A stretch of DNA of 32,000 nucleotides from Candidatus Saccharimonadota bacterium (GCA_963706795.1 OY970170.1:1235897-1267896); one strand, 5' to 3'. Counted from the stretch's first letter, positions 6,289-30,869 are shown. Program-made: numbers and translations. Notes: generated from the letters alone by a model not told the origin.

Positions 6289-6312
6289 AACAAGGAGGTT
6301 TATGGTGCGATA

Positions 6313-7109: not shown

Positions 7110-7136
7110 AAAATCCCCGACTATGTCGGGGATTTT
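7110..7136. terminator. Intrinsic terminator hairpin (A-tract/T-tract flanked, potentially bidirectional)
   Basis: aaaatccccgac (7110-7121), tat loop, gtcggggatttt (7125-7136): a perfect 12-bp stem. It starts 16 nt downstream of the TGA that closes ORF 7152..7562 on the minus strand. Confidence 0.75.
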
Positions 7137-7151
7137 GTGATGACGAATGGA

Positions 7152-7562: not shown

Positions 7563-7665
7563 TTTACTTCCTTAAGTAGACCCTCCGAGGAAACTCATCG
7601 GGTAAAATAATATCTATTGGTATTTCATCCCCACAAAGTTCATAAGGACCAAAAGAGTCTACGAA

Positions 7666-7701
7666 AAATCCCTCCAAAACCAAAGATTTCGAGAGGGATT
7701 T
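7666..7701 (-). terminator. Putative intrinsic terminator after the P-loop gene
   Basis: aaatccctc (7666-7674) pairs with gagggattt (7693-7701), with an 18-nt loop. On the minus strand it overlaps the TAA of 7700..8227 and is followed by TTTCG. Confidence 0.4.
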
Positions 7702-8227
7702 AGGAGAGATTTTTGAGTTTTATTGTGTGGCTAATAAGTTCAAATCCGTTCTCAACAGATGTGATTTCTAAAGTCTTTGATTGAAGGCTAGAAGTAGCTA
7801 TATTTTCCAGAATTCTTGGTAATTGTCGCTTCTTCCAAGTCAGTGTGCGTATCAAAAAACCAATATTGATCGAATTTGCTCCGTGGATATTTAGGTCCTG
7901 TTTATTGCGTTTTTGCTTGAAAAACAAACTCTTCATAGACCTCTTTAAGATGCGGAGAATATTGCCAAGTGGAGATGTATTAATAATCACTATCAAATCC
8001 ACTCGATCTTTCATAGATTTAATGATCGAGCAACTTGCTCATTCAATAATCCAGCTTGATTGCTGTATAGCTTCTTTTTGAAGTAATCAATAATTTGGAT
8101 TCTCAATCCAACCTTCTTGCCATTGGAGCGAATCAAGATGCACAACAGGAATGTTATATGTTTGACTCAGATCGTGTGCAAGCGTAGATTTCCCTGATCA
8201 GGCTGGGCCAGTAATGTATATGCGCAT
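7700..8227 (-). CDS. P-loop NTPase, adenylate-kinase / topology-modulation (FlaR)-like
   Basis: Track ORF 7700..8014 extends upstream through TGAs (8039, 8087, 8198) to ATG 8225-8227: 'MRIYITGPAG-S-GKSTLAHDLSQTYNIPVVHLDSLQW'. TGA 8198-8200 supplies a Walker A glycine (GPAGSGKST). TAA at 7700-7702. Confidence 0.75.
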
Positions 8228-8244
8228 AAGGAAAAAATGAATAG

Positions 8245-10987: not shown

Positions 10988-12508
10988 CTACGCGAGATAG
11001 TTCTCCCACTTCGCAATTCGGCCATCAGTTTCAAAATATTCAAATTCTGCCCATTTGGACATTACTTCCTTATCCATGGAGAGTTTTACAATGGCTCCGT
11101 CAGACTGGAGTAATTCATCGATAGTTTTTGTGGCACATGAAGGATCGAAGAGATCAATCCCATGTTTCTCCAAAAGAATTTTTACAAGGAAATCGAGCCG
11201 CTTATGACAGATATATGTTGGGCTTTTTGAATGCTCTCTGAGCTCGGCTACGGTCTCAACTTTTTTTGGAGTTCTCGCATATGCACGACGCTTGTATTCG
11301 AGCCAGCTGTAGGGATCTGGATATTTCATGGATTCACCGAGCGCTTTTTGTTCCGCCTGGATACGAGCAATTTCGAGCCAAGAAGCATCAGAAGCCCCAT
11401 CCTGAAAGCGTGATTGAATCATTGATATTTTTGCGTCCATAGCCATATACGCGTGATACTGACTCACAAGCTTATCTACGCGCTCCTCGGATAATGCCAC
11501 AAATGCCTCAATAGTATCTGGAATCATAGGAGAAGAAATTGATTGGATTGTGTGTGTAATTGAATGGTCACTCACTTGCTCAAAAATGAGTATTTGCGAA
11601 GGCGTCATGGGGCTCACAGTTATAATATTGAGATATGGAGCCACGCTTGTGTGCTTGGAATAGACGAAACTTCCGTGAACAAAATCAAATTCGGTTTGCC
11701 CGATTACACCTTTTGCACGCATGACATTTGTTCCAAGAGACGCGATGGCCAGATCAAGATCCTGCCGAGAAAAATTCGCATGCAACTCAAAGCTTCTCGT
11801 GAATACTGGCGCCTTTTTTGTAGCTGATCTGGTATTCATATGTGAGGTCGGAGCAGATGCACTTCTCAAAAAACTCGGCTTTGATTCGGGCTTTTTAGGG
11901 AGATGATCGAGTAGTCACAAAAGGGATTCGTAATCCTGCTCATGTGGATGTGATTCGAAGGATTCTTGACTCGATCAATCGATCTTTCTGAGTTGTACGA
12001 TCGGAGCAGATGGAGCGAGTCGACCTATCCATTGCAGAACATTGTCCGAATTCCCCTCAGTCCACGTGAGTCCGACGATATCCGCAGTCCTCATCTGAGT
12101 ATCCATCACCACTCTCTCCGCCTCAGAACGAAGTGGAAAATGCTCGACATCCGAGAGCACAATCGTCGTCACACGAAACCCAGTTCGCTTCATAAGAGCA
12201 AGAATGGCAGGTCATTCGGCAATTCCACTCGGCTCAACAATCAGGAGTTCTGAGGAACCCTTCGCTTGATGCAGGGCATTGGAGAGAGATTCCATGTCTT
12301 CGCAGCAGATACACCCCTCGGTGAGCGCGGTCACGTCAGCATCACTCAAACGAGCCGCATCGATATTAATTGATCCAACGTCATTGACGATAATTTTGGT
12401 TTTCTGCTTAAATCGCGAAAGCATCCATCGGATTAGTGACGTTTTTCATGATCCAAGTGGCCCAAGGACCAATAGGGCTCGCGAAGTATCGGGACTGTGC
12501 ATTGTCAT
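10988..12508 (-). CDS. COG0523-family (CobW/ZigA/YeiR-like) metallochaperone GTPase with about 200-aa extra C-terminal region
   Basis: Track ORFs 12212..12424, 11975..12193 and 10988..11869 are in one frame, joined by TGAs at 12446, 12212, 11975 and 11915. 'LVLGPLGS-G-KTSLI' Walker A (TGA 12446-12448 is the Gly of GKT); 'TEGCICCEDMESL' (GCxCC); 'LLIVEPSGIAEG'; CobW_C-like 'VMRAKGVIGQTEFDFVHGSF'. ATG 12506-12508, TAG 10988-10990. Confidence 0.85.
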
Positions 12509-12513
12509 ATCCA

Positions 12514-13332
12514 CTACAGTGATCAAAGAATACAAGAATTCACAACACCAGACGGTGGATTACAATACATCACTTCTGCGTATCCATCCGGAAGCCACGA
12601 AGTTTGCATCTCCGGATAGAGAAATGTTCTGTAACCGAATGCTGTACGAAACAATACGGTCTGTCCTGACCTACTCGAATCCAAGATAGATTGAGCAATT
12701 ATTCGTTTTGTCACTGCATCACATCCCGCAAGTGCAGCAACAAAAATACAGTCGTACTCTCCATAGCCAGAGAATTTTTCGGCTGACCCATGGAGAATTC
12801 CAACATTCTCTGCGAGCCCTATTCGGCTGATGAGCAGACGAGAGAGCTCACAGGCATTTTCATTGCTATCAAGACAATCAACCCCTTCTATAAATGCATC
12901 CTGCATTAATATTGGAGAGAGTGGCAGTGGTCCTGATCCCACAAAAAGCGCCCTACGTGCAGAACCGAGCCCACGTTCTTTTCGGTACTGATGGATCAAT
13001 GATATTTCCCATGTACTGAGCAACCGATAATTTTGCATATACGGAAATATCTCAAGATCTTTGAGACTCAAAGGGTCTTTATTTTTAAGAAGCAAATTTG
13101 CCCAATGATGCTCGAGAAGGGATTCTCACTCTGAGCACAGAGACTGCATTTTGGAGCGCAATGAGCGAGTCGGGATATCCCAAAAAAGCTCAGAAATATC
13201 CCCGTCATGCCCCATAACCGTCTCTACCAAACGCGAGAATTCACCATTTACCGTCGGCGAAGGATGAAGCGAATCCTCCCGTGAAAGCCGATCATATATC
13301 GTCTGAATTACTTCAATACTACTATGCGTCAT
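12514..13332 (-). CDS. Nicotianamine synthase-like (NAS/CntL-type) SAM-dependent aminobutyryl transferase
   Basis: Track ORFs 13126..13332 and 12523..13095 are in frame, joined by TGA 13126-13128 ('LCSE-G-ESLLEHHW'). NAS hallmarks by recollection: 'SLHPSPTVNGEFSRLV', 'FPYMQNYRLL', 'ALFVGSGPLPLSPILM'. It reads through TGA 12523 to TAG 12514-12516. Confidence 0.8.
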
Positions 13333-13735
13333 GCCCCGCTTTTGTTACACAAGAAGGACAATTTCCCACATGCGTCTCACGATGGGATTCTAGGATATTT
13401 CCTGCACTATTTTTGAAGTGCTCATCACTAATACTCCCACATCCATGACAGTGAGTGAGTTCAAAATGCCTCGATGGTTCTCGACCATTTCGGATCTCTG
13501 CACAGAGTACAAATGACTCCACGCCATGCTCATAGAGAGCATGGATAAGTCCCGCATCCCGAAAATCAGAAATACCTCGATAGAGCGTCGCAAGATTTGC
13601 ACCTGTACGAGATATGTAAGCTTCTTTGAGCGAATCAAAGTCGCACGCATTCTGCTCAGATAAAATCTCAAGCAACGCCACTCGCGACTTCGTTGCACGA
13701 CATCAGACAGAATGAATAATTGAGGAATGGTCCAT
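13322..13735 (-). CDS. Fur-family metalloregulator (Zur-like)
   Basis: 'ATLYRGISDFRDAGLIH' (wHTH), 'HFELTHCHGCGSISDEH' (HxHxxCxxC-type site) and a second 'CPSC'. ATG 13733-13735 (one TGA at 13703), TAG 13322-13324. It overlaps the NAS start by 11 nt. Confidence 0.8.
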
Positions 13736-14819: not shown

Positions 14820-16949
14820 CTACGAAACTTCTTCTCATTCTGGTGGAGTATTTTTAGCATTCATGATCTTATGGATCCTATTCCCTACTATCGTTCCGAG
14901 GAGTTCTTTGTAGCGTTTTCTTTCGGGATTTACACGGGTCTTGCGACTTGGGAGAGCAGAATGAATAACAAGATCAAGTTTTTGCTCCTCGGTCATCGTC
15001 TTTTTGTAGTTCACCATATTGCGACTCGCGCGACAAGCAAAGGCGTCAATTCGGCCGTAAAAACCTGACTCTTCAGCTCGGATACGGAGATCATCCAGGG
15101 TTTGTCCACTATTCGTATTGTCATCGAAGATGAGTAGCCAGTTCTGATCTCGCATTTGATGCCTCGTATCATCATCAATAATAGACTTTTGCATGACCTC
15201 GGCGATGGGATAGTCAGCCAGCTTGAGGAATGAATTGGCATTTTTGACGTCATAGATCGAATAGACGATATTTCAGACATTCGCGAGCACCTGGCCACTA
15301 TTCACTGACTTCGAAAAAACGTATTTTGCATAGAGCCCAGTGAGCGCGCCACCATAGTTTACGCCCATGATATGCAGGACATCCTTTGTAGGCTTATAGC
15401 CCTTTTGGATAATCATATTAAGTGCATTTTGGGCAGTCTTGATCATCACGAGTGGATCGTTTTCTTCTCTATAGAGACGAATGATCTTTTTGAGTGCCTT
15501 CTCATGGACGATTGTATTTTGAGGCTTCGTCGTTTTTTGTTTCTTTTGAGCTCGCTTCTCGCCGTCAGCCACATAGCTGTCCATGAGCTTAAAATATGAC
15601 TCGAGGAGTTGTAAAATATCTACAAATTCAGCACGCATCATATCGGTTTTACCCGTGTTGATCTCAGGGAGTTTATTTGGGATTTCTCAAACAATCTTCA
15701 CATGTGCTATGTCGTTGTTTCAGAGCATTATATCCATCGAATACCCCACATGACTATCGAGCATACTCAATAAGGCATAATGTCAGTCTTCGTCTCATCG
15801 AAGAGTTTCCTGAAGCTTTTTAAACTCTGCAAATTCGTGCGGACTAGTACTCTTGATATGACGAACTTCATCGCGCTTAAACACGAGACTTCCCTCGTAG
15901 TCAGGATTAAGGAATTGCTCACTATAGAGAAGCTGAGCAGCATTCTGCATGAATGCCAGCATATTAATCTTCGCATCCAAAAGTCCGAGAAGAATCTTCT
16001 TCATCGACTTATGCGTGTTAATTTTTATATACTTGTTGAAGATCTTGTCTATATCAAGCGCAAAAGTCACCTTCGCATGCTGTAAAAGCAAACTTTGATT
16101 CGAGAGAAATTTGAGAATATGATGGAATAAATGCGCCGTCGGAGTCTTGGCAAAATCCTGGACCATATTACGAAGCTGCTCAAGACCTTGCAGTGTCTGG
16201 ATTCACTGCGTAGTAAAAAGATTGTCTAATTCTTGGTTTGAAGTTTGATTCTTTTTTTTGAGTTTCCGCTCCAAACGTCTCAGATCACCTGGAGCCAAAA
16301 GATTAAAAATATCCCGCGAGAAATCATCCAGATTATGCGTCAGCCCGTTCCAAAGCATCTCTTCGTAATAGGTGCTAAATAGTCGAATATTCTGATCGAT
16401 CGAATTATAGTGAGCCAGGAAATCATGCTTAAAACCATCCATATTTACATCGAGCACATCATGGTCATTGATCGACGAAAACCGCTCCTTGGTATCTACC
16501 AATACACTCGGAAACTGGAAATAGTATTTTTGGTTTCGAAATATGAGATTGCTGCCATGTTTATAGACAAAATCATTCTTGAGATTGAGCAAATACGCCT
16601 CATGAAGCCAATGAGATCACTCAATCGGGTTACCGTCCTTGTCTAGACTTACAAACAAACCTGTGAGCTCATTTATGTCCTCTTTGTTTAATTTGATAGC
16701 TCCATCTACATGGAAATATTCTTTAAGGAGTGAATTAATTTCATCACCTGCGAGAACATCCAATGAGCGCTGTTTTATATAATCAGTTATCCCTGTAAGC
16801 TTATTTTCAAAAGGAATACTGAGCTTTTTAATGCGCTCAGATTCACTCATTTCATCCTTGGAGAGCTCATCTGAGATTGCAAAGAGTACCTCAGGAGTGA
16901 GTTCTACACTTGGCTCGTCAGGAGATGAGACGATATGGAAATTTTTCAT
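14820..16949 (-). CDS. Large protein (709 aa) with C-terminal phosphoribosyltransferase-like domain; N-terminal about 450 aa of unknown family
   Basis: Track ORFs 16617..16949, 16203..16592, 15795..16166, 15273..15641 and 14835..15194 share one frame. The gaps contain only TGA (8 in total). PRT-type motifs 'HIMGVNYGGALTGLYAKYVF' and 'WLLIFDDNTNSGQTLDDL'. ATG 16949 (in-frame TAA upstream), TAG 14820-14822. Confidence 0.75.
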
Positions 16950-17078: not shown

Positions 17079-17119
17079 AACACGGACCATATTCACTCAG
17101 CGTAAATATGGTCCGTGTT
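17079..17119 (-). terminator. Intrinsic terminator closing the type I R-M / GNAT operon
   Basis: 14-bp perfect stem aacacggaccatat (17079-17092) / atatggtccgtgtt (17106-17119), 13-nt loop. On the minus strand it is followed by a T-rich run and lies 15 nt after the GNAT stop. Confidence 0.7.
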
Positions 17120-17133
17120 AATCGACAACATCA

Positions 17134-17604
17134 CTAGTGATCTCAAAGTTTCTTCCAAAACTCCACCGTCGTTTTCTGCATGCCAGCATCTAAATAAAAT
17201 CGCTGTGAAAGCTCATTTTCAAAATCTGTGTGGGTTGTGAGGTGATCACACCCTCTTGTTATTAATTCCTGTTCAAGAGCCTGAAAAAGCTTGCCTGCGA
17301 AGCCCTTACCTCGGAGATCAGATCTCACGAATACTTCATCCACATAACCGAGTTTGCAAAACCTATGGTTCTTGCGTTCATGAACCGATCACTGCACAAA
17401 TCAACCCACTTCATCGTTGTCAGTTATCGCCACAAATATAATCTCGTCATCAAGATCGGATTCCTTTAGTGGCAAATAAGGATTTACTCGCTCATGAAAA
17501 TCCTGATTTTCTTTAGAAAAAATCTGGGAGCGATAGAGATTGAGCTCATCCATGAGGAGCTGGATTCACTGGATGTCGAATTTGGTGGCTTTGCGGATGA
17601 GCAT
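17134..17604 (-). CDS. GNAT-family N-acetyltransferase
   Basis: 'MLIRKATKFDIQGIQLLMDEL...' and 'VDEVFVRSDLRGKGFAGKLFQALEQ' (acetyl-CoA motif A, R/Q-x-x-G-x-G/A). 4 in-frame TGAs. TAG 17134-17136. The start is 26 nt after the hsdR stop. Confidence 0.8.
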
Positions 17605-17630
17605 TGGGAGAGGTGAGACTGAGATATAAC

Positions 17631-20600
17631 CTATTTTGAAAGCTCTTGAGCTAATAATTCGCTCTGTTCAATCACACGATCAGCCTCAATCTTTGCGAGG
17701 TCTGGTGGATACCCATAGCGCATGAGCACTTTTTTTACCGTGAGACGAAGTTGAGCGCGAACATCATCACGTTTGTTCCAGTCGACTGTAGCATTCTTTC
17801 GAATGATATCTACGATCATATGGATCAATTCCTTCATCTTATGATCCTCCAGAAATTCTGTCGATGTGTTCTGCGAAAGTATAGAATAAAATGCATATTC
17901 TTCGGGGGTGAGACCAATCTCCTTTGCTCGCATATCCTCAATCCTCATATCGCGTGCAATCTGTGAAAGTTCCTCGATAATCTGTGCTGTATCGAGTTGA
18001 TTGTTATGGTAACGCTTAATCACATTTCCAAGCATTTCAGAGAACTTTTTCCCTTGAGCAACATTCTTTTGTTTGCGAACCTTCACCTCCTCAGTGAGAA
18101 GTTTTTTAAGGAGTTCAAAAGCAAGATTTTTGTGCTCCATGTTTTTCACTTCTAATAGAAATTCCTCTGACAGAATCTCAAGTGAAGGAGCTTTGATTCC
18201 TGCTGCTTCAAAAATATCTACCACTCAATCCGAAGACAAAGCTTCTTCGACAATCTGTCGGATCGCCGTATTTACCTCTGCATCACTTTTTCAACCAGTA
18301 GGTGAGAATTTATTGATTCGTGATTTAATAGCCTGAAAGAAGGCAATATGATCCTTGATTTGTTCCGCCGCAACACTCGGTACAGCCATTACAAAGAGTT
18401 TTGAAAGCGCAGACACTTCAGCGAGGAATCGATTCTGTGTATCTTCACTTCGAAGGATGAAGTTTTGTGCAGCGAGCAACACATGAAGCTTCTTTCAGGT
18501 TTCAGCAGTGAAATACGACTGATAATCGAATCCGTGAAACATCTGAGAAACAATCTCGAATTTTGTTCGCATCCCAGCTATTACCTCCGCAATATCCAAT
18601 ACTGCTTGCCCCTGTCACCCATTGTCCGTATACGTCGACATCGCATTTCGCAGATCTTGTCCGATACCGATATAATCAACAATCAATCATCCTGGCTTAT
18701 CTTTGTAAACGCGGTTCACACGTGCAATTGCCTGCATAAGGTTTGCACCTTCCATTTTCTTGTCGATGTACATCGTATGGAGCGACGGTGCGTCAAATCC
18801 TGTCAGCCACATGGACTGTACGATCACGAGTTGCAGGGAATCATTCGGATCTTTGAGCCTAAGGGCTAATGCCTTGCGCTCATCCTTGGTAGTGTGATGT
18901 GGCTGGAAATCTTCAGGATCATCTGTTGAGCTCGTCATCACGATCTTCAAGAAACCCTTCGTAAGATCCTGATCATGCCATTCAGGTCTGAGTTTCACAA
19001 TCTCAGTATATAGGTTCACTGCGATCTGTCGTGTCATACACACGATCATCCCCTTTCCTTCGAAGATAGCCTGACGCGCTTCAAAGTGATCAACGATATC
19101 CTTCGCAATATCCCTCAATCTATCTGGATGCCCCACGATACTATCGATCTGTGCATTGCGTTTTTTTGCTTTCTCTTTCTGCTCAGGTGTTGCATCTTCG
19201 ATCTCATCGATCGCTATATCGATCTGAGCAACAGCCGCATCGTTCATCTTGATCTTCACAAGTCGACTCTCATAACTAATCGGCACAGTTGCGCCATCTT
19301 GAACCGCCTGTGCGATATCGTAGATATCCACATATCCACCAAATACTGCAGGTGTAGACTTATCTTCCTTCTCGATCGGAGTACCCGTGAATCCTATGAA
19401 AGAAGCCTGAGGAAGCGCATCTCTCATATACTTTGCATTCCCGTACTTGATCTCGCCATCAAGATCAACCTTTCCCGTGAAACCATACTGACTTCGATGC
19501 GCCTCATCTGCAACCACTACAACGTTTGAACGATCCGTAAGAACCTCGAAAGAATTCTGCCCATCTTCAGGATAGAATTTCTGAATTGTCGTGAAAATAA
19601 TCCCACCACCTGATACTTTGAGAAGCTCCTTCAAATGCGCACGATTATTCGCCTGGACTGGTTTTTGTCGCAGGAGGGAGACACAGTTCCCAAATGTTTG
19701 AAATAGCTGTTCATCGAGATCATTACGATCCGTGAGTATCACGATCGTAGGATTCTTCATCGCAGGTTCTACAACGAGTCTTCCAGCATAGAAGACCATG
19801 GAGAGTGACTTCCCAGATCATTGAGTATGCCACACAACCCCAATCTTCTTGTCACCATCTTCTGCAGTGGCACGCAAGGTTTCCTTCACTGCCTTCTCCA
19901 TCGCGTAATACTGATGATACGCAGCAACTTTTTTGATCTTGATTACAGAGAGCACTCCCGTTTCTTTATTCTTTACTTCTTCAGCTTCAAATACTGTATT
20001 GTATCTGATCAATTCGAGCAGAGTTTTCTTCTCGAACATTCGCTCCGCCAAGATCTGAAGCTCAGGCAATACCCCATTTTCCTTCTTCTCAGGTGATTTC
20101 CACACGAGATAACGTGAGAACGGTGCAGAGACACTCGACACTCGTGCATCGAGCCCGTCAGAGATCACGCAAAGTGCATTGTAATAGAACACAGAAGGAA
20201 CCGCCTTCTTGTAGTTCTGAATCTGTGTGAAAGCTCGCTCCAATGTAGCATCCTCATCCATTGTATTCTTGAGCTCAACCACGACAAGTGGGAGTCAATT
20301 CACAAACAACACAACATCCAGTCGCTTTTCATTGTTATTTTCCTTTACTACGAACTGATTCACCACACAGAAGTGGTTATTCTCTGGATTCACAAAATCC
20401 ACCAAGTTCACACTCACCCCCTTCGACTGCCCATCCGTGAAATACTCCACCACTACCCCATCCGTTAACATCTGATGAAATACCTCGTTGTTCATCATTA
20501 GATCATCCGAATCAAAGCGACGAATCTTTGAAAGTGCTTCGATTCGAGCAGATTCTGGGATGTGAGGATTGAGACGGTCGATAGATGTAGTTAGTACCGT

Positions 20601-20744
20601 ATCTAAAATAACGCCGTCAAAACTCGAACGCATAGGGGTTGAGCTGTATGGAGAGATATCTGGACCATAGAAATACTCGTAGCCCTGAGATTTGAGGAGA
20701 TCTACGAGGTTTTGTTCGATGGAAGATTCGGTAAGGTGGGGCAT
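17631..20744 (-). CDS. hsdR: Type I restriction enzyme, R subunit (1037 aa)
   Basis: Five track ORFs (20295..20744, 19818..20282, 18687..19799, 18291..18482, 17631..18224) share one frame. Joins: '[17 protein letters not shown]' (TGA 20295) and '[18 protein letters not shown]' (TGA 19818, helicase motif I). Also '[11 protein letters not shown]' (DEAH) and a C-terminal '[21 protein letters not shown]' region. 7 in-frame TGAs. TAG 17631-17633. Confidence 0.95.
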
Positions 20745-20748
20745 AGAC

Positions 20749-21300
20749 TTATATATGAAGTTCTTGAGGTAAGAATCTATTTATTTCATTATCTGACCAA
20801 GTAAATTCTTCATCTCTATTCTGTTTTCATAACAAAGATAACTGAGCCTCAGTGTAATCAGTATATGTTGTTTGTGAGGATAGTCAGACAATAATTTGAT
20901 ACTGTTCCTGATATAAATCTCTTCTTCAAATCGTTTCATCTTCGCTCAAACCACCTATAATATCAACTATAAAGTTTTTATATTTATCTCTCAAGTTTAG
21001 AAATTGCAGTGCAATTTTTTTAAACTCCTGTGCTCTTTGTTCTATAGAAAATTCTTTCTGGAGGAATAAGAAAATTATCTCAGAAACCGTTAATGCAACA
21101 GATACACCTCCAAAAATATTACTGTCTGGAAATTTAATCTGTAAAATAAGGAATACTAGAATCAAGAAAACATCAATGATGTTTACCCACTTAATCAATC
21201 ATTGAACTTTTTCTAGTCTATCACACGCTTTTTCATAAACCTTGTGATTAAAGACGCATTGAGCAAATTGCTGTCTTACCACTGAAAGATTTCTATTCAT
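20749..21300 (-). CDS. SLATT-like two-transmembrane effector protein (183 aa)
   Basis: ATG 21298-21300. N-terminal helix, two adjacent TM helices (LIKWVNIIDVFLILVFLILQI; IFGGVSVALTVSEIIFLFL), then a helical tail '...YTDYTEAQLSLLGKQNRDEEFTWSDNEINRFLP'. 4 in-frame TGAs. TAA 20749-20751, 4 nt before the hsdR ATG. The assignment rests on architecture plus the SMODS neighbour. Confidence 0.55.
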
Positions 21301-21311
21301 ATTTTAGAAGA

Positions 21312-22190
21312 TTATCATGTAAATTTTGATCAAAATATTTCCCTCCATTTTTGATTAGCAGAATATTCCTTTGCCTCCGATTCATACTGCATAGCCTCTA
21401 TCGCTAAGTTATATGCCAATTTTGCCTTGTACTCAAACTTTCATCCCCTCCATACGTACTGACCACTTCAAGGTGCAAGCCAGTAAGATTTATCCTCATC
21501 CTGTTCTTTAAGGAATTTAAAGAAATCCCTTACCATCCAATCATAATACAAATAAGATTTATCCTTTTGCGCCCAATTCTTCATAAAATGATAGCATAAT
21601 GTATCAATCAAAAGCCCTCACATTGGTACATTCCAATAATCTTTCCATACCCTAGTAATTCTGCATAGTCTTTTTAAATTAAAATTCCAGTCTTCATTCT
21701 TCTCCCTAATTTCCTTAATCTCAGGTTTTGGATTTGTCTTCTTCCAAGAACCTCAATCGTTTGAATCAGGAAAAGTATAACTATCGTCAGTTTTAATAAA
21801 GGCAGGTACTATTTCAAAACAGATTCAATCATTCCAGTTGATTCAAATAACTTGTCCATCCCCTTTTATATGTGTTGTAGGATATGTTTTCTGTAATGAT
21901 GATCTAATTGCTTGCAACAATGCAGACTGTCAGTTTCCAGTATAATTGTTATACGTTTCATACAGTGAATCTGGAAGTTGAAAAATTACATCAATGTCAC
22001 TTACATGTATGTCTGTATCTCTACCATAAGATCATACGTATAGACTATGGCTATATTCTGATTCTGTGGACCAAAAATCTTTATTTAATCTCTTTGTGAT
22101 AGATCTATAGCGTACTGAAATCGTATCTATATTATCAATATCGATACGAATATTATCGCAGAAATTTTCAAATTTAGTTGTAATAGACAT
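21312..22190 (-). CDS. SMODS / CD-NTase-like nucleotidyltransferase (292 aa)
   Basis: This is the only frame free of TAA/TAG across 21315..22193; I enumerated every tta/cta. 10 in-frame TGAs, so the track shows no ORF here. Pol-beta NTase core 'YVGSYGRDTDIHVSDIDVIFQLP', 'GICFEIVPAF', 'PDSNDGGSWKKTNPKPEIKEI', 'RLCRITRVWK'. ATG 22188-22190, TAA 21312-21314. Confidence 0.75.
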
Positions 22191-22203
22191 AGATTAACAA
22201 GAA

Positions 22204-23436
22204 CTAAATTAAAGATGGTAAAATTTCTCCGCTCATCAACCTTGGCAATAGCTCATCGCGAGTTCTCGAGAGCAATGCTACTTGAGCTAAGTTATTATAG
22301 ATTTTTCGAAAAATTGGCTTAACTTTCTCATCAAATCCCCTTACTCTCTCAATATTTGGAACAAGCACCTCAAGTTCTTTTATCATGGTCGAATTAATCG
22401 CTGTGACTATCGATGAAGTACTTCATAGTGAGTTGAAATCCAGTTTCTGAAGATAGCAATATATAAATTCGGTACTCAATGCAGAGTTGCCCTTGATTTT
22501 CAGGTGAGCAATTGCTTCATTTGAGAGCATCTCTTCGGTGGTAATCGTTAGTTTACCGACAGTCATTTTGAAACTCAATATCGTTGTATTGATAGGAATT
22601 ACTGAGATATTGAATTTCTTAATTGCCTCATCTATCAGATATTCTGAAGTTTCAAAAATATATGTTTTACTATTTCCGATATCCTTTATAGAAATCCACT
22701 TTTTCCCTGTTGGAGATTTTGAAAACCACTCCGGTTGAATACGAGGAGGAGTTCTTCAGATTGTAATATCAAACTCCGTCCCTAATTTTCCTACTCTCCA
22801 ACCCTCCGGCAACTCATCATCTACGCCATACTTCCCAAATAACTCCTGAAAAATTGTCTGCGCAGTTTTCTCAAGTGTCTCATTTTGCTCTCGAAGAAGT
22901 TCGATCTTATCATCGAAACTTGAAAGTATTTGAGCGATTGCTTGTTGTTCAGGGAGAGAAGGAAGAAGAATAGGATATTCAGTAATTTGTCTCTGGCTTA
23001 TATGCGGGATAGATGTTCCAGTATGAACCTTTGCTACATAGGATTCAAAATTCTTATTTAGAATGAGATGTGCTATGAAATGCTGATCTGAGATTCATGG
23101 TTTCCTTCTTAAACATGCTACTCGCTGAGCCAATATTAGTGGCAGTTCTTTTTCTTGAACCATAGACCTATTTTTTCCAACCTTTGATCCATCCATTCAA
23201 ATTACTATGTCATCTTTTTGTAAGAAACACTTTTCCAATCCATCCGTAGAATGATTCCAATACTTCACAATATCCCATCTAAGAAATCATTCCGAGACAT
23301 TTTCTCATCTTACGACTCTCAAATTTCAATTCGAATCATATAAATTTCACTTGAATGATTCTCACGTAAAAATATCCACAACCTTCCCCAAAGTCGTCTC
23401 CATCCACCCTTCAGGAATCATTTTTTCATTTCTCAT
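22204..23436 (-). CDS. hsdS: Type I restriction enzyme, S (specificity) subunit (410 aa)
   Basis: The frame is open from 23496 to TAG 22204, with 9 in-frame TGAs. 'IPEGWMETTLGKVVDIFTG', 'LAQRVACLRRK', 'HTGTSIPHISQRQI', central 'LPEQQAIAQILSSFDDKIELLREQNETLEKTAQTIFQELF', second TRD 'LPEGWRVGKLG...', C-terminal 'RTRDELLPRLMSGEI'. Confidence 0.9.
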
Positions 23437-23437
23437 A

Positions 23438-23908
23438 CTACTTTTGAGGATTACTCATTTGATTAAGTACGCTATCCACCGCCTTTCATGGTAAGTTTAT
23501 ATCTCCTGTGTTAGTTCATGGAGTGTTTACTTTCTCAGCAATGTTCTCATAATCTGGCGTAACTTTATAATTTCCTCGATTACTCCTATAAAGCTTCCAA
23601 TTCTGTGCCCATTCAATCGCAGTATCTCGGAAACTTTTGTCTATCTTACCGTAATTTACAAGTGTCTCTGAGCCTCAAAATCAGATAGTCATAAATGTTA
23701 CGAGATAGGCCACAGTAATCACCCCGACTTTGTTCTTAAACCATTCAACTTTTGTAGTCAGAAGATATGTCAGAAAAACGAGCAAACAAGCGATTCCGAT
23801 TGCTATAAGCCAGAAGATGATCGTGAATACCGCATAAATAATCACCGCGAGGATTACAATTCCTATCACTCATTGTTCTACGAATCTTTCTTTTCATTTT
23901 CGACCCAT
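23438..23908 (-). CDS. Small membrane protein (156 aa; 2 N-terminal TM helices plus soluble tail), unknown function
   Basis: Track ORF 23681..23869 extends to ATG 23906-23908 and through TGAs (23681, 23675, 23516, 23486) to TAG 23438-23440, 1 nt before the hsdS ATG. Confidence 0.55.
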
Positions 23909-23952
23909 ACTACTTTTGGTTATCAGACAAAGGTTTATGCACTTCAAATAAT

Positions 23953-25089
23953 TTATTTCTCCAGGATATCAAAATAAGACCTAAATACGAAGAGTCGATT
24001 TCTTTTGTTGCCAGTGATTTCCACAAGTATGCCAAGCTTCACAAAATCTTGTATGAGATCGTTTGTCGCTTTTGGGGAGAGATCTGTAATCAATTGCACG
24101 TTTCGCGAAGATACGATGGGCTTCTCGAAAAGTTTCTCAAGCAAGGTATGTGCGCTTTGCATCTTCCTTCCAAGAGTGGGAAGTGAATTTTTGGTATGAT
24201 AGTCTTTCAGATCTAGGACTGCCTTGAGCGAAAGCGTTGCTTCATTTGCAGTTTGTTCCACTCACTCAAGGAAGAAAAGCACCCAAGAGAGAAGATCGTT
24301 TTTCTCTCTAACCCAGGTGAGCTTGTCGTAGTAGAGGGATTTGTTCTTTTCGAAGAAATCAGATACATACAAGAGTGGTCTATGGAGTATACCGTTACTT
24401 ACTAGATAGAGCGGTATCATGAGTCTCCCAGTTCTGCCGTTCCCATCGAGAAATGGGTGTATAGTCTCGAACTGATAGTGAGCTATGGCAATCTTTATGA
24501 GATGAGGAAGTCACACGGCGTCATTATGGAGGAATTTCTCTAGATCAGACATGAGATCACTTACGTGTTCTTGACTCGGGGGTATAAATTTTGCATCAGA
24601 CAGACCCGCACCGCCAATCCAATTTTGACTCGTTCTGAATTCTCAGGGACTCTTATCCCTTCCTCGCACATGAGAGAGAAGGATCTTGTGGATTGATTTA
24701 ATCAAGCGGTTTGAGAGTGGGATATTCTCAAGTTCTTCGATAGCAAAATTGAGAGATTCACGATATTGAATAGTTTCCCTCCAGTCATCCCGTTTTTCTG
24801 GTTGGATATCTCATTCATCAGAAAAAGCCTCTTCAATATTGGTTTTTGTTCCCTCTATTCGGCTTGATGTGACCGCTTCCTTCATGACATATGATTGAAG
24901 GAAAAGTTCGATATTTGGGACAAATTTTGAAAAGGAATTGAGCTCACCAAGCTTAAATGATGCGGATTCAAGTTTCTTCTGAAGAAGAGGATGTGAAAAA
25001 GTCCATTCATGATTTATGGTTTCAGGAAGGAAGTACTTATACTGATAAGCATTTCTCCAAACTCCAGATGTAAAGGTCTCGATCTGCAT
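23953..25089 (-). CDS. Fic/DOC family protein (378 aa)
   Basis: Track ORFs 24811..25089 and 23953..24261 are in frame. The translated gap contains the Fic motif '[12 protein letters not shown]', preceded by '[14 protein letters not shown]'. N-terminal Fic_N-like 'SSRIEGTKT', wHTH-like C-terminus. 4 in-frame TGAs. TAA 23953-23955. Confidence 0.9.
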
Positions 25090-25175
25090 AGAAGTAAATT
25101 ATATATTTCTATAATTTAGTTTATCAGTTAAAAGTAAAATTACAATATCCATATTTTACTTTTGAACGTTATCCA

Positions 25176-26690
25176 CTAAAGCTCAAATCCTATCTTCGCA
25201 AGCTGTCTTTTGATCTCTTCATCGAGTTCTTTCTCTCGTGCCATCTGCTCACCGAGCTTAGTGGTGAGTTCTTTCATCTTTACTTCAAATGGAATCCCAT
25301 CGTCAACTGCGTCTACAATCCCAACATATCGACCTGGAGTAAGTACAAATCCATGTTTCTCGATGTCAGCGAGGCTTGCAGACTTACAATATCCTTTCTG
25401 ATCTTCGTAGGTATTCCCTTTTCTCCAGTTGTGATACGTTTCAGCGATCTTATTCATATGATCTTCGGAGAGATCTCTATGAACACGATCCTTCATATAT
25501 CCCATCTCAGAAGCATCGATGAAAAGCGTTTCACCTTTGCGCTCTGTTCTCTCACGTCGGAGAAACCAGATACAGGCTGGGATACCAGTATTGTAGAAAA
25601 GTTGTTTTGGAAGCGCGACGATACAGTCTACGAGGTCTGCAAGGACGAGCTTTTTGCGGATTTCTCCTTCTCCACTTGTATTAGATGAGAGTGAACCGTT
25701 AGCAAGAACGGTCGCCATGACTCCATGAGGCGCAAGGTGGTAAAGCATATGTTGAATCCATCCGAAATTCGCATTCCCTGAGGGTGGAACTCCGTATTTC
25801 CAGCGCGCATCGTCTTGGAGGATATCGACTCCCCACTCTGATTGATTGAAGGGCGGATTTGCGATGATAAAGTCAGCCTTGAGATCAGGATGCTCATCAC
25901 GAAGAAAAGAGCCCTCTGTATTCCAACGCACAAACTGCGAGTTGATATTACGGATTGCTAGATTCATCTTTGAGAGTTTCCAGGTTGTTTGGTTACTCTC
26001 TTGGCCGTAGATAGTGATATCTTTGATATTTCCCTGGTGTTCTTTGATGAATTTCTCACTCATTATGAACATACCACCGGAACCACAGGCTGGGTCGTAA
26101 ACACGTCCTTTGTATGGCTCGATCATCTCGACCATGAGTTTAACAATGGCTTTTGGCGTGTAAAACTGACCACCCTTTTTTCCTTCGGCATTTGCGAATT
26201 CACCGAGGAAATATTCATAAACTCGACCGAGGAGGTCTTTTGTATTGGCATTTGCAGCCTTGAGTTCGATGTCAGAGATTACGTCGATAAGTTCACCTAG
26301 AGAGGTTTTGTCGAGATTGGGCTTACCGTAGACTTTGGATAGTACATTGCGAAGCTCCGAGTTCTCTTTCTCTATGGACTCCATCGCATCGTCGAGATCC
26401 ACTCCAATCGTTGGAAGTTTTGCTCGTGCATGGAGTGTTTTCCAACGAGCATTTTCTGGCACGAAGAATACATTTTTTGCCTTGTACTCATCACGGTCCT
26501 CTGGATCAGAAAATTCATCTGCCTCAAGTTCGTCGTAGAGCTCTTGAAAACTATCAGAAATATACTTGAGGAAGACAAGTCCAAGAACGACGTTTTTGTA
26601 TTCTGCTGCGTCGATGTTTTTACGAAGCTTGTCAGCAGTCTTGAAGAGTTGTGCTTCGAAATTATTATTGGCTTGATTCTGCGCTGCCAT
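25176..26690 (-). CDS. hsdM: Type I restriction enzyme, M (N6-adenine methyltransferase) subunit (504 aa)
   Basis: Intact in the track. 'VVLGLVFLKYISDSF' (HsdM_N), 'GQFYTPKAIVKLMVEMI', 'VYDPACGSGGMF' (SAM motif I), 'FIIANPPFN' (motif IV NPPF). TAG stop. No in-frame TGA at all. Confidence 0.95.
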   Translation of the reverse strand: MAAQNQANNNFEAQLFKTADKLRKNIDAAEYKNVVLGLVFLKYISDSFQELYDELEADEFSDPEDRDEYKAKNVFFVPENARWKTLHARAKLPTIGVDLDDAMESIEKENSELRNVLSKVYGKPNLDKTSLGELIDVISDIELKAANANTKDLLGRVYEYFLGEFANAEGKKGGQFYTPKAIVKLMVEMIEPYKGRVYDPACGSGGMFIMSEKFIKEHQGNIKDITIYGQESNQTTWKLSKMNLAIRNINSQFVRWNTEGSFLRDEHPDLKADFIIANPPFNQSEWGVDILQDDARWKYGVPPSGNANFGWIQHMLYHLAPHGVMATVLANGSLSSNTSGEGEIRKKLVLADLVDCIVALPKQLFYNTGIPACIWFLRRERTERKGETLFIDASEMGYMKDRVHRDLSEDHMNKIAETYHNWRKGNTYEDQKGYCKSASLADIEKHGFVLTPGRYVGIVDAVDDGIPFEVKMKELTTKLGEQMAREKELDEEIKRQLAKIGFEL

Positions 26691-26719: not shown

Positions 26720-26748
26720 TTTACCCAATACTGATGCATTGGGTAAAT
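26720..26748. repeat. 10-bp inverted repeat upstream of hsdM (terminator of the preceding gene or an operator)
   Basis: tttacccaat (26720-26729) / attgggtaaa (26739-26748), 9-nt loop. It lies 30 nt upstream of the hsdM ATG and 58 nt downstream of the stop at 26806. The T-tract is weak. Confidence 0.4.
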
Positions 26749-26805: not shown

Positions 26806-27456
26806 TTATGGGGTTACAGAATTTAATTCATTTCTTCTTATAAAATAGATATACATCCTAGTTCATAGCATAGTGAGTTCTTGGTGAGTTCTTACTAGTT
26901 CGAATTTTGAGTATTCAGAACTATCAAAGAAAGCTTGTATATCTTCAATAGAATATTTGTCTCTCTGAAAACTTACTTTCTCGGGGTAAATTGCAAAAAC
27001 AACACTCATCTTATAAACAGCATCAGTACTACTAACTTTCTTTAATCCGATTTTGGCATTTAGAACATCAGCTGCATCTTGTCACTTATTGTTTTTCACA
27101 TCCCTTATTGCTCTAAGGGACACGGCTCATTGAGAAAAAAGTTCTCTCAATTTTGATCAGGTACATTTCTTCACATGCACAAATTGACTCGTTTTCTCAA
27201 TAAACAAATCACATATTTCCAAACCATTTAATGTAAGTGATTGGTCATGAGAATCACCAAGATCTAAACAGTGATATCAAGCTTTATGAAGAACTGGATG
27301 ACTAGAATCAACATAGAATGCATCCGACTTATCATGAACAGCATTAAATGCAGCTTCATTATGAGTCCACCTGTATCAACCCACTGTACTATTTATTTTA
27401 TCTATAGTTGATTCCCATGGGTTCAAGAAATCATCCTTCAAGGGGCAATACCTCTT
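26806..27456 (-). CDS. C-terminal fragment of a PD-(D/E)xK-like, TIGR04141/DUF6119-like protein (frameshifted relative to 27402..28763)
   Basis: The frame is open from 27456 to TAA 26806-26808 with no ATG near its top. 'HCLDLGDSHDQSLTLNGLEICDLFIEKTSQFVHVKKCTGSKLRELFSQGAVSLRAI' gives a D...E-x-K nuclease-like core. The 'HVK...LxxLFxQGxxS' signature is one I associate with TIGR04141. 6 in-frame TGAs. Confidence 0.55.
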
Positions 27457-28763
27457 TTAAATAAATTTGAGAACTCCTCTTCTACACAGGTAAATAGATC
27501 GGCATTGGGCTCGTAAAAAGCCTCTCAGTACTTGAAATATCGACCATGGGGATTCTCAAGCAAAATTTCACCCTCAATAAGTTCTTCAAATGTAAGTCGC
27601 ACAGAGTCATCCTTGGATCAATCATTATAACTGATGAGTAACTCAAGATTTTTTATAGAGGTAAGATTCGGGAAATCTCGAAGATTAATTTTAACGGCAT
27701 CATCGATAATGAGATCAATTGAATCGAATTCAATTCAATCACTTTGATCACAGGTATCTCTAATTATCGCGTTATTAAAAACATATTCATTCTCTATCAT
27801 GTTCTCTCGTAATTCTTCAAGAGTCGAAACTGATATACTAAAATCACTCAATCCTTTTTCCAAAACACGCTTATTCAGTTCCACTAGAAGCAATCTATGT
27901 AATGCGGAATCTTCTGGCACTCTCAGCAGTTCCGGTATTTTTAATCAATCAAGCACATTTACATCATACCAATAAATCCGATCGATAATCTCAGTTAGTA
28001 ATTGACGATCAATTTTTTCAATTTTTAGCTGCAAAGACTCAGTTCCTGTAGCACTAAATGCAAGTCTTCTGTATTCTTTTCTAGAACTGTTTCTAGGATT
28101 AAAGTTTGAGTCTTCGTGGAAAAATTTACTGAGATTTACTTTTCAGATGAGCTCTTTTAGTACTCTTGTTGCATTTGTAAAATCTTCTGAAGGCCTATAT
28201 TTTGTTTTTCAATTCGACTTAAAAGTTCTCATTATTTCATCCAACAAGTTACCACTTCCACCAGTTTCTTTTTGAAAACTACGTCGTAAGTCGCCATCTT
28301 CGGATATAAGCTTTTTTGTCATTTCAATTCAGAATCTCTCTTCAAAAATATCTCGTAAGTATTGAAATCCTCTTCCGAAAGAAATCAGGTAGTATTCTCA
28401 CCCAATATGGAATCCACCAATTATCCCCTTATTTATAGTCTTATACTCAGATGAAATTTCCTCAAAATCATCTTCAAGACCTACTAGCTTAAGAAAATTG
28501 AACCAGGACTCCTTTTCGATAATCTCTGTACCTTCATGCTTCATCCAGGCAAATAAACAATACCTAGCACTAGATGACGTATGAAGCTGCAGAGGACGCC
28601 ACTCTTTTACAATCTGTGTACCTCCAGTACTAGCACTTGTATTAGATAGTAATCCAGCATTCTCTAGTTTCCCCTGAACTGTCTTAAACAATTTCTCTTC
28701 GTCCTTTAAGTTACTTTTTACCTTGTAAATCCTAAGCTCACTAATGAATGTTGACTGAGACAT
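27402..28763 (-). CDS. N-terminal fragment (453 codons) of the same TIGR04141-like gene
   Basis: Track ORFs 28398..28763 and 27735..27920 share a frame. There is no TAA/TAG in that frame until TAG 27402-27404. ATG at 28761-28763. The last about 17 codons overlap the open top of the 26806..27456 frame. Confidence 0.55.
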
Positions 28764-28847: not shown

Positions 28848-28924
28848 TGGTGGACCGGGAGGGGCTCGAACCCTCGACCTAAAGATTAAGAGTCTTCCGC
28901 TCTAACCAACTGAGCTACCGATCC
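28848..28924 (-). tRNA. tRNA-Lys (anticodon CUU), CCA encoded
   Basis: Minus-strand read: GGATCGG-TA-GCTC-AGTTGGTTA-GAGC-G-GAAGA-CTCTTAA-TCTTT-AGGTC-GAGGG-TTCGAGC-CCCTC-CCGGTCC-A-CCA. 7-bp acceptor stem (one G-U), T-loop TTCGAGC, 7-nt anticodon loop with CTT at positions 34-36. Confidence 0.9.
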
Positions 28925-28997: not shown

Positions 28998-29717
28998 TTA
29001 TGGAGAAGATTGCTTTCCGCGGAGGAGTGAGAGAATAACGCGGTCAATCTGGTACTTGGTGATAGCGTTAGTGGAGGCGATATCGGTGATGGCTTTGGCG
29101 AGGATATCAAAGAAATCTGGGGGCAATTCTCCTGTGCGACGGCGGGCGGTGTCTTGGAGGGCGAAGAGGAGCTCGAGGGCTTCGTCGCGCTTGAATGTTT
29201 TGGTTGCGTAGTATTCGGCGATGGCGGGCTTGGAGAGGGTGATGAGGCCGAGGGCAAGCTCACGGGTATCAGGGCTGATATCGCGGGCAACATCGGTGAT
29301 CTCGAGGAATTGGACGCGTGAGGCTATGGTTTCGAGGAGGGCTTCGCGGGACTCGAGGGTGAGGAGGATGAGTGTGCGAGCAGGGACATCTTCAAATGTT
29401 TTGAGGAGGGCGTTGGCAGCTTCTTTGCTCATTTCGTCGACTTGGGAGACGATGATTACTTGGTAGGGGCCAGATGAGCGAATAGTTGCTCGGGTGATGA
29501 TTTCACGGACTTCTTCGACTTTGTAGGAGTCTTCGCGTGGGGCAAAAAAGGCGATGTCGGGGTGGGCAATCTCGGGAAGTTCTTCAAAAAATACTCGATG
29601 ATTAAAGAGTACTTGGATGATTTTTTCGGTCTGGGACTCGCTTACGACGATGGGTGCGACAGAGCCACCTGCTGTGAAGCGGTCGAGGACGGATGCGAGA
29701 CTTGGAGAGAGTGACAA
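28998..29717 (-). CDS. holB: DNA polymerase III delta-prime (HolB)-like clamp-loader subunit
   Basis: 'EAANALLKTFEDVPARTLILLTLESREALLETIASRVQFLEI' matches the clamp-loader sensor-1/SRC region. TTG start at 29715-29717 (in-frame TAG just upstream), TAA 28998-29000. Visibly GC-richer than the island; no in-frame TGA. Confidence 0.75.
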   Translation of the reverse strand: MSLSPSLASVLDRFTAGGSVAPIVVSESQTEKIIQVLFNHRVFFEELPEIAHPDIAFFAPREDSYKVEEVREIITRATIRSSGPYQVIIVSQVDEMSKEAANALLKTFEDVPARTLILLTLESREALLETIASRVQFLEITDVARDISPDTRELALGLITLSKPAIAEYYATKTFKRDEALELLFALQDTARRRTGELPPDFFDILAKAITDIASTNAITKYQIDRVILSLLRGKQSSP

Positions 29718-29741
29718 ATTGGGCTTTATTTCGGACTATTT

Positions 29742-30869
29742 GTGCCTATTCTATGGCAAACATCGCCCGTGAAAAGTCTCATTTCTTTGTATATCGAATA
29801 TCAGGCCCAGATTATTGCTCTGTCGGCAGTTTTTTTGGCGCTTATTTTGTGGAGGTTTTCGTTTGTGCGAAGGATTGGATATTTCTTTGCCAACCTTCCA
29901 AACAAGCTTTTGGCATTACTGATGCTGTTAGTGCTCGTGCCGGCAATTGGTGGAGCATTGTATTATATCTTTGCGCTGAATACTGGATCACTTGAAGTGC
30001 AGGTTTCTGGAGGCTCGGATGTGACTATCGGGTTGAAGCGATCTGATGTAAATGCATTTGAGCGGGTCTGTGCGGATATTTGTCGATTTGAGAATATTCC
30101 CGCCGGAAGCTACGATGTTATGTATTCCTGATCTGGCATTGTCGAGACGCGAGAAGTTGCCACCATCAAGCGTGGTGAAAATCTCAGGATTTCATTTGTG
30201 CCCGCCGGTAAAATCGCCCTGGAGCCAACGGATCGAGTCACCGCAACTGGCAGTGTGAGTGATGATGACAACTACGTCTTTGCTGGAGCATTCCGTGGGA
30301 AAAACTACAATATCAAACTCTCCCCTTTTGGTTTTGGAGAAGCGAGTGGCAGCGGACAAAATACGCTCTATGAGGCAAATTGACTCGTTGGATATCTGAC
30401 AGGATCAATTCAATATGGATATTTTGTAACGACTACAGCGGACAAAAATCTCCATGTGCTCGATCTTGTTTCGCTTGCGGTCCATGATTTTGGTTCGCCG
30501 GATGAGAGTGTCGCGCTCAGTATCAAATCGACTGGTAAAAAAGATATGGCTGTGCTCGAGACCAAATCTTGATCTTATCTCGTAAATCTCGGTGATAATA
30601 CGCTCACTCCCCTTGCGCTCTATGATGACCTCGCTCTCAGTGCGCGCGGGACACTCATCGGGCTTGTGCGCGGAGAAAGCGCGACAAAAAGATCGCTCCT
30701 TAATCTCGATACGAGATCATGAGACATCCTCATCGATACAACACGTATAGATAGTAAGCGAGTACTGATGGACGGACTCTCGGCGATTGCGCATATCCAC
30801 ACGATTGGTGGCAAATTTATGGTCGAATATATCGACGGAAGCTGGGCAAATCTTAATGGAATCAATTAA
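29742..30869 (+). CDS. Membrane-anchored protein with beta-rich extracytoplasmic region (375 aa), unknown function
   Basis: Track ORFs 29742..30131 and 30198..30383 are in frame. Reading through TGAs at 30129, 30381, 30570 and 30720 reaches TAA 30867-30869. Two N-terminal TM helices. GTG start at 29742 is uncertain. The stop overlaps the next ATG (TAATG). Confidence 0.6.

Follow-up and report, generated by a model that had tools for sequence, protein, structure and literature searches.

A type I restriction-modification operon with two occupied cargo slots, one holding a putative minimal CBASS, in a genetic code 25 bacterium

Defence genes carried within type I restriction-modification (R-M) operons have been published for several bacteria, namely PrrC in EcoprrI, TgvAB in VPI-2 of V. 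cholerae and RloA-H in Campylobacter (RloF), and the 'guilt-by-embedding' survey of Payne et al. (2024) found that known systems, too, occur embedded in this way. The locus described here occupies positions 17134-26690 of a 32,000-nt stretch of DNA from a Candidatus Saccharimonadota bacterium (GCA_963706795.1, OY970170.1:1235897-1267896), which is referred to below as the window. With a probability of roughly 0.7 it represents a type I R-M operon that is intact and that carries, in both of its cargo slots, autonomous second-line defences expressed from the host operon, together with an accessory membrane protein (TM2) and a GNAT gene that is a read-through neighbour. More specifically, the slot between hsdM and hsdS appears to carry a SoFic-like AMPylase and TM2, and the slot between hsdS and hsdR a minimal type I cyclic-oligonucleotide-based antiphage signalling system (CBASS) made up of a CD-NTase of the SMODS family and a SLATT_4 effector. 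The original prediction regarded this arrangement as undescribed, a view that does not hold: the order hsdS-CD-NTase-SLATT-hsdR recurs in a Patescibacteria genome (locus L085), on the plasmid pAV1812-2, on an Arcobacter plasmid and on several metagenome contigs, and embedding in general is published. The locus is a clear example of a nesting already known and no new kind of system. A literature search returned no description of CBASS between hsdS and hsdR or of an R-M-associated CD-NTase clade, and the strings 'cbass', 'SoFic' and 'pycsar' are absent from the supplements of Payne et al. (2024).

When TGA is read as a sense codon, the locus resolves into eight co-oriented open reading frames (ORFs) on the minus strand, in the order hsdM, Fic, TM2, hsdS, CD-NTase, SLATT_4, hsdR and GNAT, all recovered exactly at the coordinates first proposed for them. 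The spacers, in that order, measure 86, 44, 1, 13, 11, 4 and 26 nt, and the last five, from TM2 to GNAT, are identical to the tiny distances originally reported. Reading through TGA lengthens the longest ORF of the window from 514 to 1080 aa. In alignments, glycine is found in homologues at 17 in-frame TGA sites of the CD-NTase and hsdR; the TGA at the GS motif of the CD-NTase corresponds to glycine in 119 of 119 homologues, and that at the HsdR Walker A motif (GSGK) in 67 of 67. The glycines at these homologous positions therefore indicate that the genome uses genetic code 25, in which TGA encodes glycine. Gene calling with the standard table 11 would break every gene of the operon but hsdM. 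The nearest relatives of HsdR, at 75-83% identity, come from metagenome-assembled genomes (MAGs) of Candidatus Gracilibacteria and Patescibacteria. Bacteria of the candidate phyla radiation (CPR) have very small genomes and rarely carry CRISPR.

The backbone of the operon has the features of a functional type I system. HsdM (25176-26690; 504 aa) matches Pfam N6_Mtase (1e-111) and HsdM_N (2.5e-24) as well as the PADLOC MTase_I model (4e-199), and its motif I (DPACGSGG, at 199) and motif IV (NPPF, at 278) are intact. HsdS (22204-23436; 410 aa) contains two target-recognition domains (TRDs), with two stretches matching Pfam Methylase_S and full-length matches to PADLOC Specificity_I models (5e-76). 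HsdR (17631-20744; 1037 aa; PADLOC REase_I, 1177 bits) combines an N-terminal HSDR_N domain, a SWI2_SNF2/ResIII motor, a T1R_D3-like region and a C-terminal T1RH-like_C domain, and retains its nuclease residues (D143...E157-L-K159), Walker A (GSGKS) and DEAH motifs. A scan with HsdR, limited to one genome per species, yielded 80 loci onto which all eight window proteins were mapped. The order hsdM-(X)-hsdS-(Y)-hsdR is constant in 46 of these related loci, and the identities of hsdM and hsdR covary across them, hsdM being 73-90% identical where hsdR is 67-83% identical. Because the order is constant and the identity ranks run in parallel, hsdM, hsdS and hsdR read as one coherent type I R-M system, which settles in favour of the original prediction the question of whether this hsdR belongs with the other two subunits. 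The system is predicted to be active, with sequence-specific methylation and ATP-dependent restriction.

The distribution of cargo among the related loci is revealing of how the two slots are used. In 41 of 57 loci hsdS and hsdR stand more than 1 kb apart (median ~1.7 kb), and in 33 of 46 more than 300 nt separate hsdM from hsdS; both sizes could be too large by a few hundred nt where tblastn spans end in the variable TRDs of hsdS. Despite this possible overestimate the slots are occupied, because ORF content is found in them: they hold 160 ORFs in about 110 sequence clusters, nearly all co-oriented with the hsd genes. A domain census of this content returned families that are usual for embedded defence cargo, namely RhuM/PDC-S05 (10), Fic (6), NTase_sub_bind of the HEPN-MNT type (5), PIN_12 (5), Abi_C (5), YhcG nuclease (4), KilA-N/ORF6N (4), Schlafen AlbA_2 (3) and FRG (3). 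No homologue of the window's SMODS, SLATT or GNAT proteins is present in the 80 loci of the HsdR clade. In a code 25 Patescibacteria MAG whose HsdR is 81% identical to that of the window (L007), the hsdS-hsdR slot encodes PycC (7e-100) and PycTM (2e-33) along with PDC-S13; this Pycsar system (6791-8187) is complete and places a second nucleotide-signalling system in this slot. In another relative (L005, 75% HsdR identity) the same slot holds a gene for 256 aa and a Hachiman-type HamB helicase. The hsdS-hsdR cargo varies among related genomes, and the pattern indicates that the slots are cassette-exchange sites at which whole cassettes are swapped between genomes. Fic, TM2, the CD-NTase and SLATT_4 all lie between core genes, co-oriented with them and at positions of variable content. 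GNAT does not, and of the five passengers originally counted only the first four stand.

The pair in the hsdS-hsdR slot has the composition of a small CBASS. The CD-NTase (21312-22190; 292 aa; Pfam SMODS, 4e-51) is covered over its full length by the PADLOC Cyclase model PDLC00786 (7e-139). Aligned to the CdnD-type structure 6p8u, it retains the catalytic residues GS (53-54), DID (65-67) and E126, and its similarity to solved structures is remote (E=3e-8). Eleven nucleotides downstream lies SLATT_4 (20749-21300; 183 aa), which is supported by Pfam SLATT_4 (1.6e-24), by the PADLOC 2TM Effector model (1e-31) and, above cut-off, by NCBIfam SLATT_4 (72.6 > 55). Families of Cap2/Cap3 and HORMA/TRIP13 have no match among the eight genes or the flanking genes, and Pfam detects no sensor domain appended to the CD-NTase. 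On its sequence the pair is a minimal type I CBASS of cyclase and effector, predicted to make a cyclic nucleotide and to protect from phage. Upon infection the CD-NTase would produce a cyclic (oligo)nucleotide, and the SLATT_4 effector would then permeabilise the membrane, leading to abortive infection. Each embedded module would thereby add a layer of defence of its own behind restriction.

The other slot opens with a Fic gene (23953-25089; 378 aa; Pfam Fic_N and Fic). Its product matches the PADLOC SoFic model (3e-118) over residues 16-377 and the SoFic crystal structures PDB 3eqx and 3zcn (2e-40) over 32-376. The active-site motif HxFx(D/E)GNGRxxR (at 211) and the inhibitory motif SxxxEG are intact, and the architecture is that of full-length SoFic, with Fic_N, the Fic domain and a C-terminal region resembling a winged helix-turn-helix. 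Relatives 57-58% identical likewise lie between hsdM and hsdS in two other loci (L069 and L079). Across the operon, Pfam supports the SMODS, SLATT, Fic and GNAT assignments of the original prediction, and PADLOC the first three.

TM2 (23438-23908; 156 aa) ends 1 nt upstream of hsdS. It had been called a two-transmembrane protein; its membrane character is upheld, while its hydropathy makes about three transmembrane helices more likely than two. It matches no family in Pfam, PADLOC or NCBIfam, and only 5 homologues were found among 5.8 billion proteins. TM2 or a homologue lies directly upstream of hsdS in the window, in L007, in L005 and in a further locus, L104, with a spacing of 1 nt in both the window and L104; in the latter (551-7058), which belongs to a recoded genome, the genes that come after the TM2-hsdS pair encode an AAA_21 ATPase, a Ser/Thr kinase and a reverse transcriptase. 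Because TM2 sits upstream of hsdS in these three loci, all of which are without Fic, it reads as a lineage-specific companion of hsdS, and its assignment to a Fic module is ruled out. As a conserved membrane protein that may be translationally coupled to hsdS, it is worth following up. Structure prediction for a proxy homologue (P0121) was too poor to use (predicted local distance difference test score 58.8, predicted template modelling score 0.25). The public homologues (P0121-P0125) show W where the window has a TGA-encoded G, and all five appear to come from recoded genomes. They were translated with code 4 instead of code 25, an error that large protein collections make systematically with genomes of the Gracilibacteria type.

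The CD-NTase/SLATT cassette can be followed well beyond this backbone. The CD-NTase family comprises 6,627 proteins at E<=1e-20. Among eight close relatives (65-74% identity), picked solely for lying on long contigs, seven are inside R-M loci, with an independent count nearer 6 of 7 since two of them (P0010 and P0012) are near-duplicates of one arrangement. The relative in L085 (P0003; Patescibacteria GCA_021734125.1) has essentially the window's composite operon, hsdM-Fic-150aa-238aa-hsdS-SMODS-SLATT_4-hsdR, and its HsdM, HsdR and CD-NTase are 73-79% identical to those of the window. Other type I arrangements are hsdM-hsdS-SMODS-SLATT_4-hsdR (P0002), hsdM-RhuM-hsdS-SMODS-SMODS/AGS_C-SLATT-hsdR (P0010 and P0012), hsdM-hsdS-HATPase-SMODS-SLATT_4-hsdR (P0035) and, with an HsdR of the EcoR124_C type, hsdM-SMODS-SLATT_4-(390 aa)-hsdR (P0098). 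In Sulfuricurvum (P0007) the pair stands between an NgoPII-type restriction endonuclease fragment and a C5 methylase, and the eighth relative (P0109), the exception, adjoins an integrase. At 6788-9500 of a Sulfuricurvum MAG locus (L088), where the cassette is 71% identical, the NgoPII-type fragment next to the C5 DNA methylase measures 65 aa and the type II restriction gene appears truncated.

Across the embedded loci the cassette is 66-74% identical. The HsdR beside it shares 73% identity with the window HsdR in L085 and only 27-33% in the others. The cassette must therefore have entered several unrelated R-M backbones. All embedded close relatives form a single subclade in a rough neighbour-joining distance tree. 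More distant relatives on annotated plasmids (38-59% identity) are embedded in 3 of the 11 copies inspected, on Aeromonas veronii pAV1812-2, on an Arcobacter plasmid and in a Microcystis methylase-helicase pair; the remaining 8 are standalone two-gene cassettes with upstream regions of 160-600 nt and neighbouring recombinases or insertion sequence (IS) elements. Embedded copies have junctions from -8 to +18 nt and thus lack regulatory regions of their own. A metagenome scan for CD-NTase relatives returned three loci (L082-L084), none of them clearly R-M-embedded. The SMODS and SLATT domains were defined by Burroughs and colleagues in 2015, who reportedly may have mentioned R-M-associated SMODS operons as well. 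That a subclade of at least 65% identity is embedded in R-M loci in 7 of 8 cases, across unrelated backbones, is possibly a new point.

Several observations weigh against reading the two cargoes as autonomous defences expressed from the host operon. The CD-NTase falls below the NCBIfam CBASS_cyclase_b equivalog cut-off (106.8 vs 200 bits), which places it in a clade outside that equivalog, and the Fic protein falls below that of SoFic (182.6 vs 550 bits) and so reads as a SoFic-like family member and no orthologue of SoFic; the exact product and target are therefore not transferable from characterised members. Promoter-like matches number 26, against 32 +/- 6 in shuffles, and so show no enrichment. 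That the modules work independently is an assumption drawn from analogy, and the association of the CD-NTase subclade with R-M loci in 7 of 8 cases could instead mean functional coupling.

Such coupling would make the CD-NTase/SLATT_4 subclade an 'R-M guardian' that monitors the R-M complex, for instance its inhibition by anti-restriction proteins or a stalled or translocating HsdR, and responds to subverted restriction with abortive infection through membrane disruption. PrrC, which plays this part for EcoprrI, is the precedent for a guardian role. The embedded members being one clade in the rough tree would fit this, as would a cyclase without an appended sensor domain. The seven R-M contexts moreover differ widely, with HsdR only 27-73% identical and one backbone of type II, a divergence that argues against homologous recombination as the route of entry and suggests that the position itself is selected. 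The same diversity counts the other way when the partners are considered, since several type I families, a type II R-M system and a methylase-helicase pair are too unlike for one conserved interface. Furthermore, a sister lineage (L094) and 8 of the 11 plasmid relatives are standalone cassettes beside recombinases or IS elements, unrelated systems occupy the hsdS-hsdR slot in the nearest backbones, few contexts were sampled and the tree was built from distances only. The window cargo has no sequence similarity to PrrC. We consider a guardian role unlikely. A bolder form, in which the subclade has lost autonomous regulation, takes the state of the R-M system (inhibition by anti-restriction proteins, or restriction and translocation on invading DNA) as its infection signal and is thus the equivalent of PrrC in nucleotide signalling, transferred more than once among R-M systems that are unrelated, is decidedly doubtful. 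A subclade nearly confined to R-M loci nevertheless makes it testable whether some CBASS take their trigger or regulation from restriction systems.

Autonomous cargo that lacks regulatory regions of its own would presumably be transcribed from the promoter or promoters of the R-M operon, with a possible second start in the hsdM-Fic spacer. Between 16900 and 27500, inverted repeats of the stem-loop type are confined to three places: ahead of hsdM, between hsdM and Fic, and behind GNAT. Counting only perfect repeats whose arms reach at least 10 bp, the window has 19 positions, compared with 0.5 in shuffles (~40x). The first place is a perfect palindrome at 26720-26747 on the minus strand, TTTACCCAAT-N8-ATTGGGTAAA, with 10-bp arms 30-57 nt upstream of hsdM. 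Its arms coincide with a promoter-like -35/-10 pair (TTTACC-18-TAAAAT), and it is a candidate operator/promoter of the operon. There is no evident regulator gene in the 711-nt gap between hsdM and the next gene upstream. At the other end, the single strong terminator of the original prediction (17079-17119, minus strand) was confirmed as an 18-bp stem with 7 G-C pairs, a 5-nt loop and a T-rich tail, in a surrounding region of dG -31 kcal/mol. None of the junctions from TM2 to GNAT has a terminator-like hairpin. Co-transcription of TM2, hsdS, the CBASS pair, hsdR and GNAT is likely, because these junctions leave no space for promoters or terminators, and one transcript for the whole eight-gene string is plausible.

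The coupling of hsdM to the genes behind it may be looser. Its 86-nt spacer to Fic contains predicted minus-strand elements at 25092-25163: an 11-bp perfect AT-rich stem-loop ending in T4 (25130-25163), then a 12-bp AT-rich stem-loop (25092-25121) overlapping the best promoter-like match of the region (CTGATA-18-TATAAT, 25127-25098; 10/12). They are possibly an attenuator plus an internal promoter, and because the spacer holds them hsdM may be partly uncoupled from the remaining genes. A division into several transcription units, which overlaps with the other readings, would go further, with hsdM alone or attenuated, Fic to hsdS read from the internal site and hsdR from a promoter within the AT-rich cargo. 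Minus-strand promoter-like sites do lie inside SLATT_4 upstream of hsdR (20994-20966, 10/12; 21145-21116; 20887-20860), in cargo whose GC content is only 30-33%. EcoKI-type loci have separate hsdMS and hsdR promoters. Individual sites of this kind serve as leads only, as their count lies below the shuffle expectation. Spacers of 1, 13, 11 and 4 nt, together with overlapping stop and start codons in relatives, indicate an operonic or translationally coupled layout, and the hairpin-free junctions from TM2 to GNAT likewise speak against a division there. Several units are possible, and we hold the idea only tentatively.

The operon is a compositional mosaic. The hsdM gene (GC 0.44) has TGA in none of its 35 glycine codons (P=3e-4 against the window background), and hsdR, also at GC 0.44, has TGA in 13% of them. 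TM2, hsdS, the CD-NTase and SLATT_4 have GC contents of 0.38, 0.36, 0.33 and 0.30 and TGA in 43, 35, 56 and 50% of their glycine codons, respectively (10 of 18 in the CD-NTase). In the sister operon of L085 there is no in-frame TGA, so that its genome uses the standard code. By these values the window's CBASS cassette is a long-time resident of low-GC recoded genomes. Conversely, hsdM may have come in more recently, or by recombination, from a genome with the standard code; the hsdM of L007, 90% identical to it, is also TGA-free. The fraction of glycines encoded by TGA may thus mark the residence time of horizontally acquired DNA in recoded genomes, and the differences between segments show cassette exchange within the recoded lineage.

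Uneven composition is also what could be expected of a decaying locus, in which polar effects of the insertions broke up what had been an R-M operon, leaving some parts as non-functional remnants: hsdM, without TGA, is unlike the rest, and hsdS and the cargo segments are of foreign composition. Against decay, no ORF is shortened and every catalytic motif is intact, most loci of the HsdR clade have occupied slots, and the standard-code L085 retains the layout at 73-79% identity, which implies purifying selection on the composite. Decay is highly improbable on these grounds, and the intact operon with autonomous cargo is retained as the preferred reading.

GNAT (17134-17604, minus strand; 156 aa), the last gene before the terminator, is of a different kind. 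Pfam Acetyltransf_1 matches it (2e-13) and its motif RGKGFAG is intact; PADLOC returns no match, and NCBIfam gives only sub-threshold, weak matches to small-molecule acetyltransferases. Homologues of ~60% identity in other Gracilibacteria stand in ordinary non-R-M contexts, often beside a second GNAT, and none of the 80 related loci has a GNAT gene directly after hsdR; a co-oriented gene within 300 nt after hsdR is found in only 19 of 62. These contexts and this absence make it most likely that GNAT is native to the site downstream of the operon and no defence cargo, a resident gene that would be read through to the common terminator. The contexts of its homologues led us to reject a role as defence cargo. 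A type II toxin-antitoxin toxin of the TacT/AtaT kind was rejected as well: no small ribbon-helix-helix/DUF1778 antitoxin ORF accompanies the gene, and the terminator directly follows it. On the Arcobacter plasmid CP146529.1 (L099, 951-1478) a type I R-M operon with an embedded CD-NTase-SLATT pair is directly preceded by a GNAT gene; its position differs from that in the window, and the co-occurrence may be coincidental.

The flanks of the operon contain further genes of note. A tRNA-Lys lies 2.1 kb upstream of hsdM, but no integrase and no tRNA-derived direct repeat of at least 12 nt was found in the window, and a tRNA-integrated island was rejected. Between this tRNA-Lys(CTT) (28848-28924) and the R-M operon, the minus strand encodes a DUF6119 protein of 453 aa (27402-28763; GC 0.35, 31% TGA-Gly) that has no PADLOC match and neither integrase nor att repeat nearby; it may be an uncharacterised defence or mobile gene. 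Just past the tRNA, at 29001-30000, GC content rises to 0.51 with a strong positive GC skew (0.31) around a fragment of a DNA polymerase III delta'-like gene (GC 0.56). Directly downstream of the terminator (14820-16949, minus strand) is a gene whose 709-aa product matches nothing in Pfam, NCBIfam or PADLOC; its C-terminus contains 'LLIFDDNTNSGQTL', which resembles, by eye only, the phosphoribosyl-pyrophosphate-binding motif of phosphoribosyltransferases. A flanking 336-aa protein has no PADLOC match. Genes for a nicotianamine-synthase-like protein (NAS, 1.6e-42), a CobW-family GTPase and a Fur-family regulator are clustered at 10988-13735 (minus strand), suggesting that this small CPR genome has a module for a metallophore or for metal homeostasis.

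Compared with the described systems, the operon is a type I R-M scaffold of a CPR bacterium in which the cargo of two slots can be exchanged. It is of interest for the R-M association at the level of a subclade, for its setting in a recoded genome and for TM2. Like the embedded PrrC, TgvAB and Rlo genes, its cargo consists of foreign co-oriented defence genes between hsd subunits, without regulatory regions of their own and of variable content; unlike them, both slots are filled, the hsdS-hsdR cargo is by prediction a complete CBASS and the host is a code 25 CPR bacterium. RhuM/PDC-S05, Fic, PDC-S13 and Abi_C, all found in this clade, are families that PADLOC derived from embedding. With type I CBASS that have a 2TM/SLATT effector the window pair shares a CD-NTase with GS, DxD and acidic residues followed by SLATT_4, and no Cap2/Cap3 or HORMA/TRIP13; it differs in being nested in an R-M operon without a promoter region of its own, whereas its standalone relatives have 160-600 nt upstream. 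The Fic protein resembles the single-gene system SoFic of Shewanella oneidensis in its Fic and N-terminal inhibitory motifs and full-length match, and differs in scoring below the equivalog threshold and in being embedded between hsdM and hsdS. The closest parallel to the hsdS-hsdR cargo is the Pycsar of L007, which likewise places a cyclase and a small transmembrane effector between hsdS and hsdR, beside an 81%-identical HsdR and under code 25. There the cyclase is a class-III-type pyrimidine cyclase and the effector PycTM, so that the proteins are unrelated but the logic is analogous.

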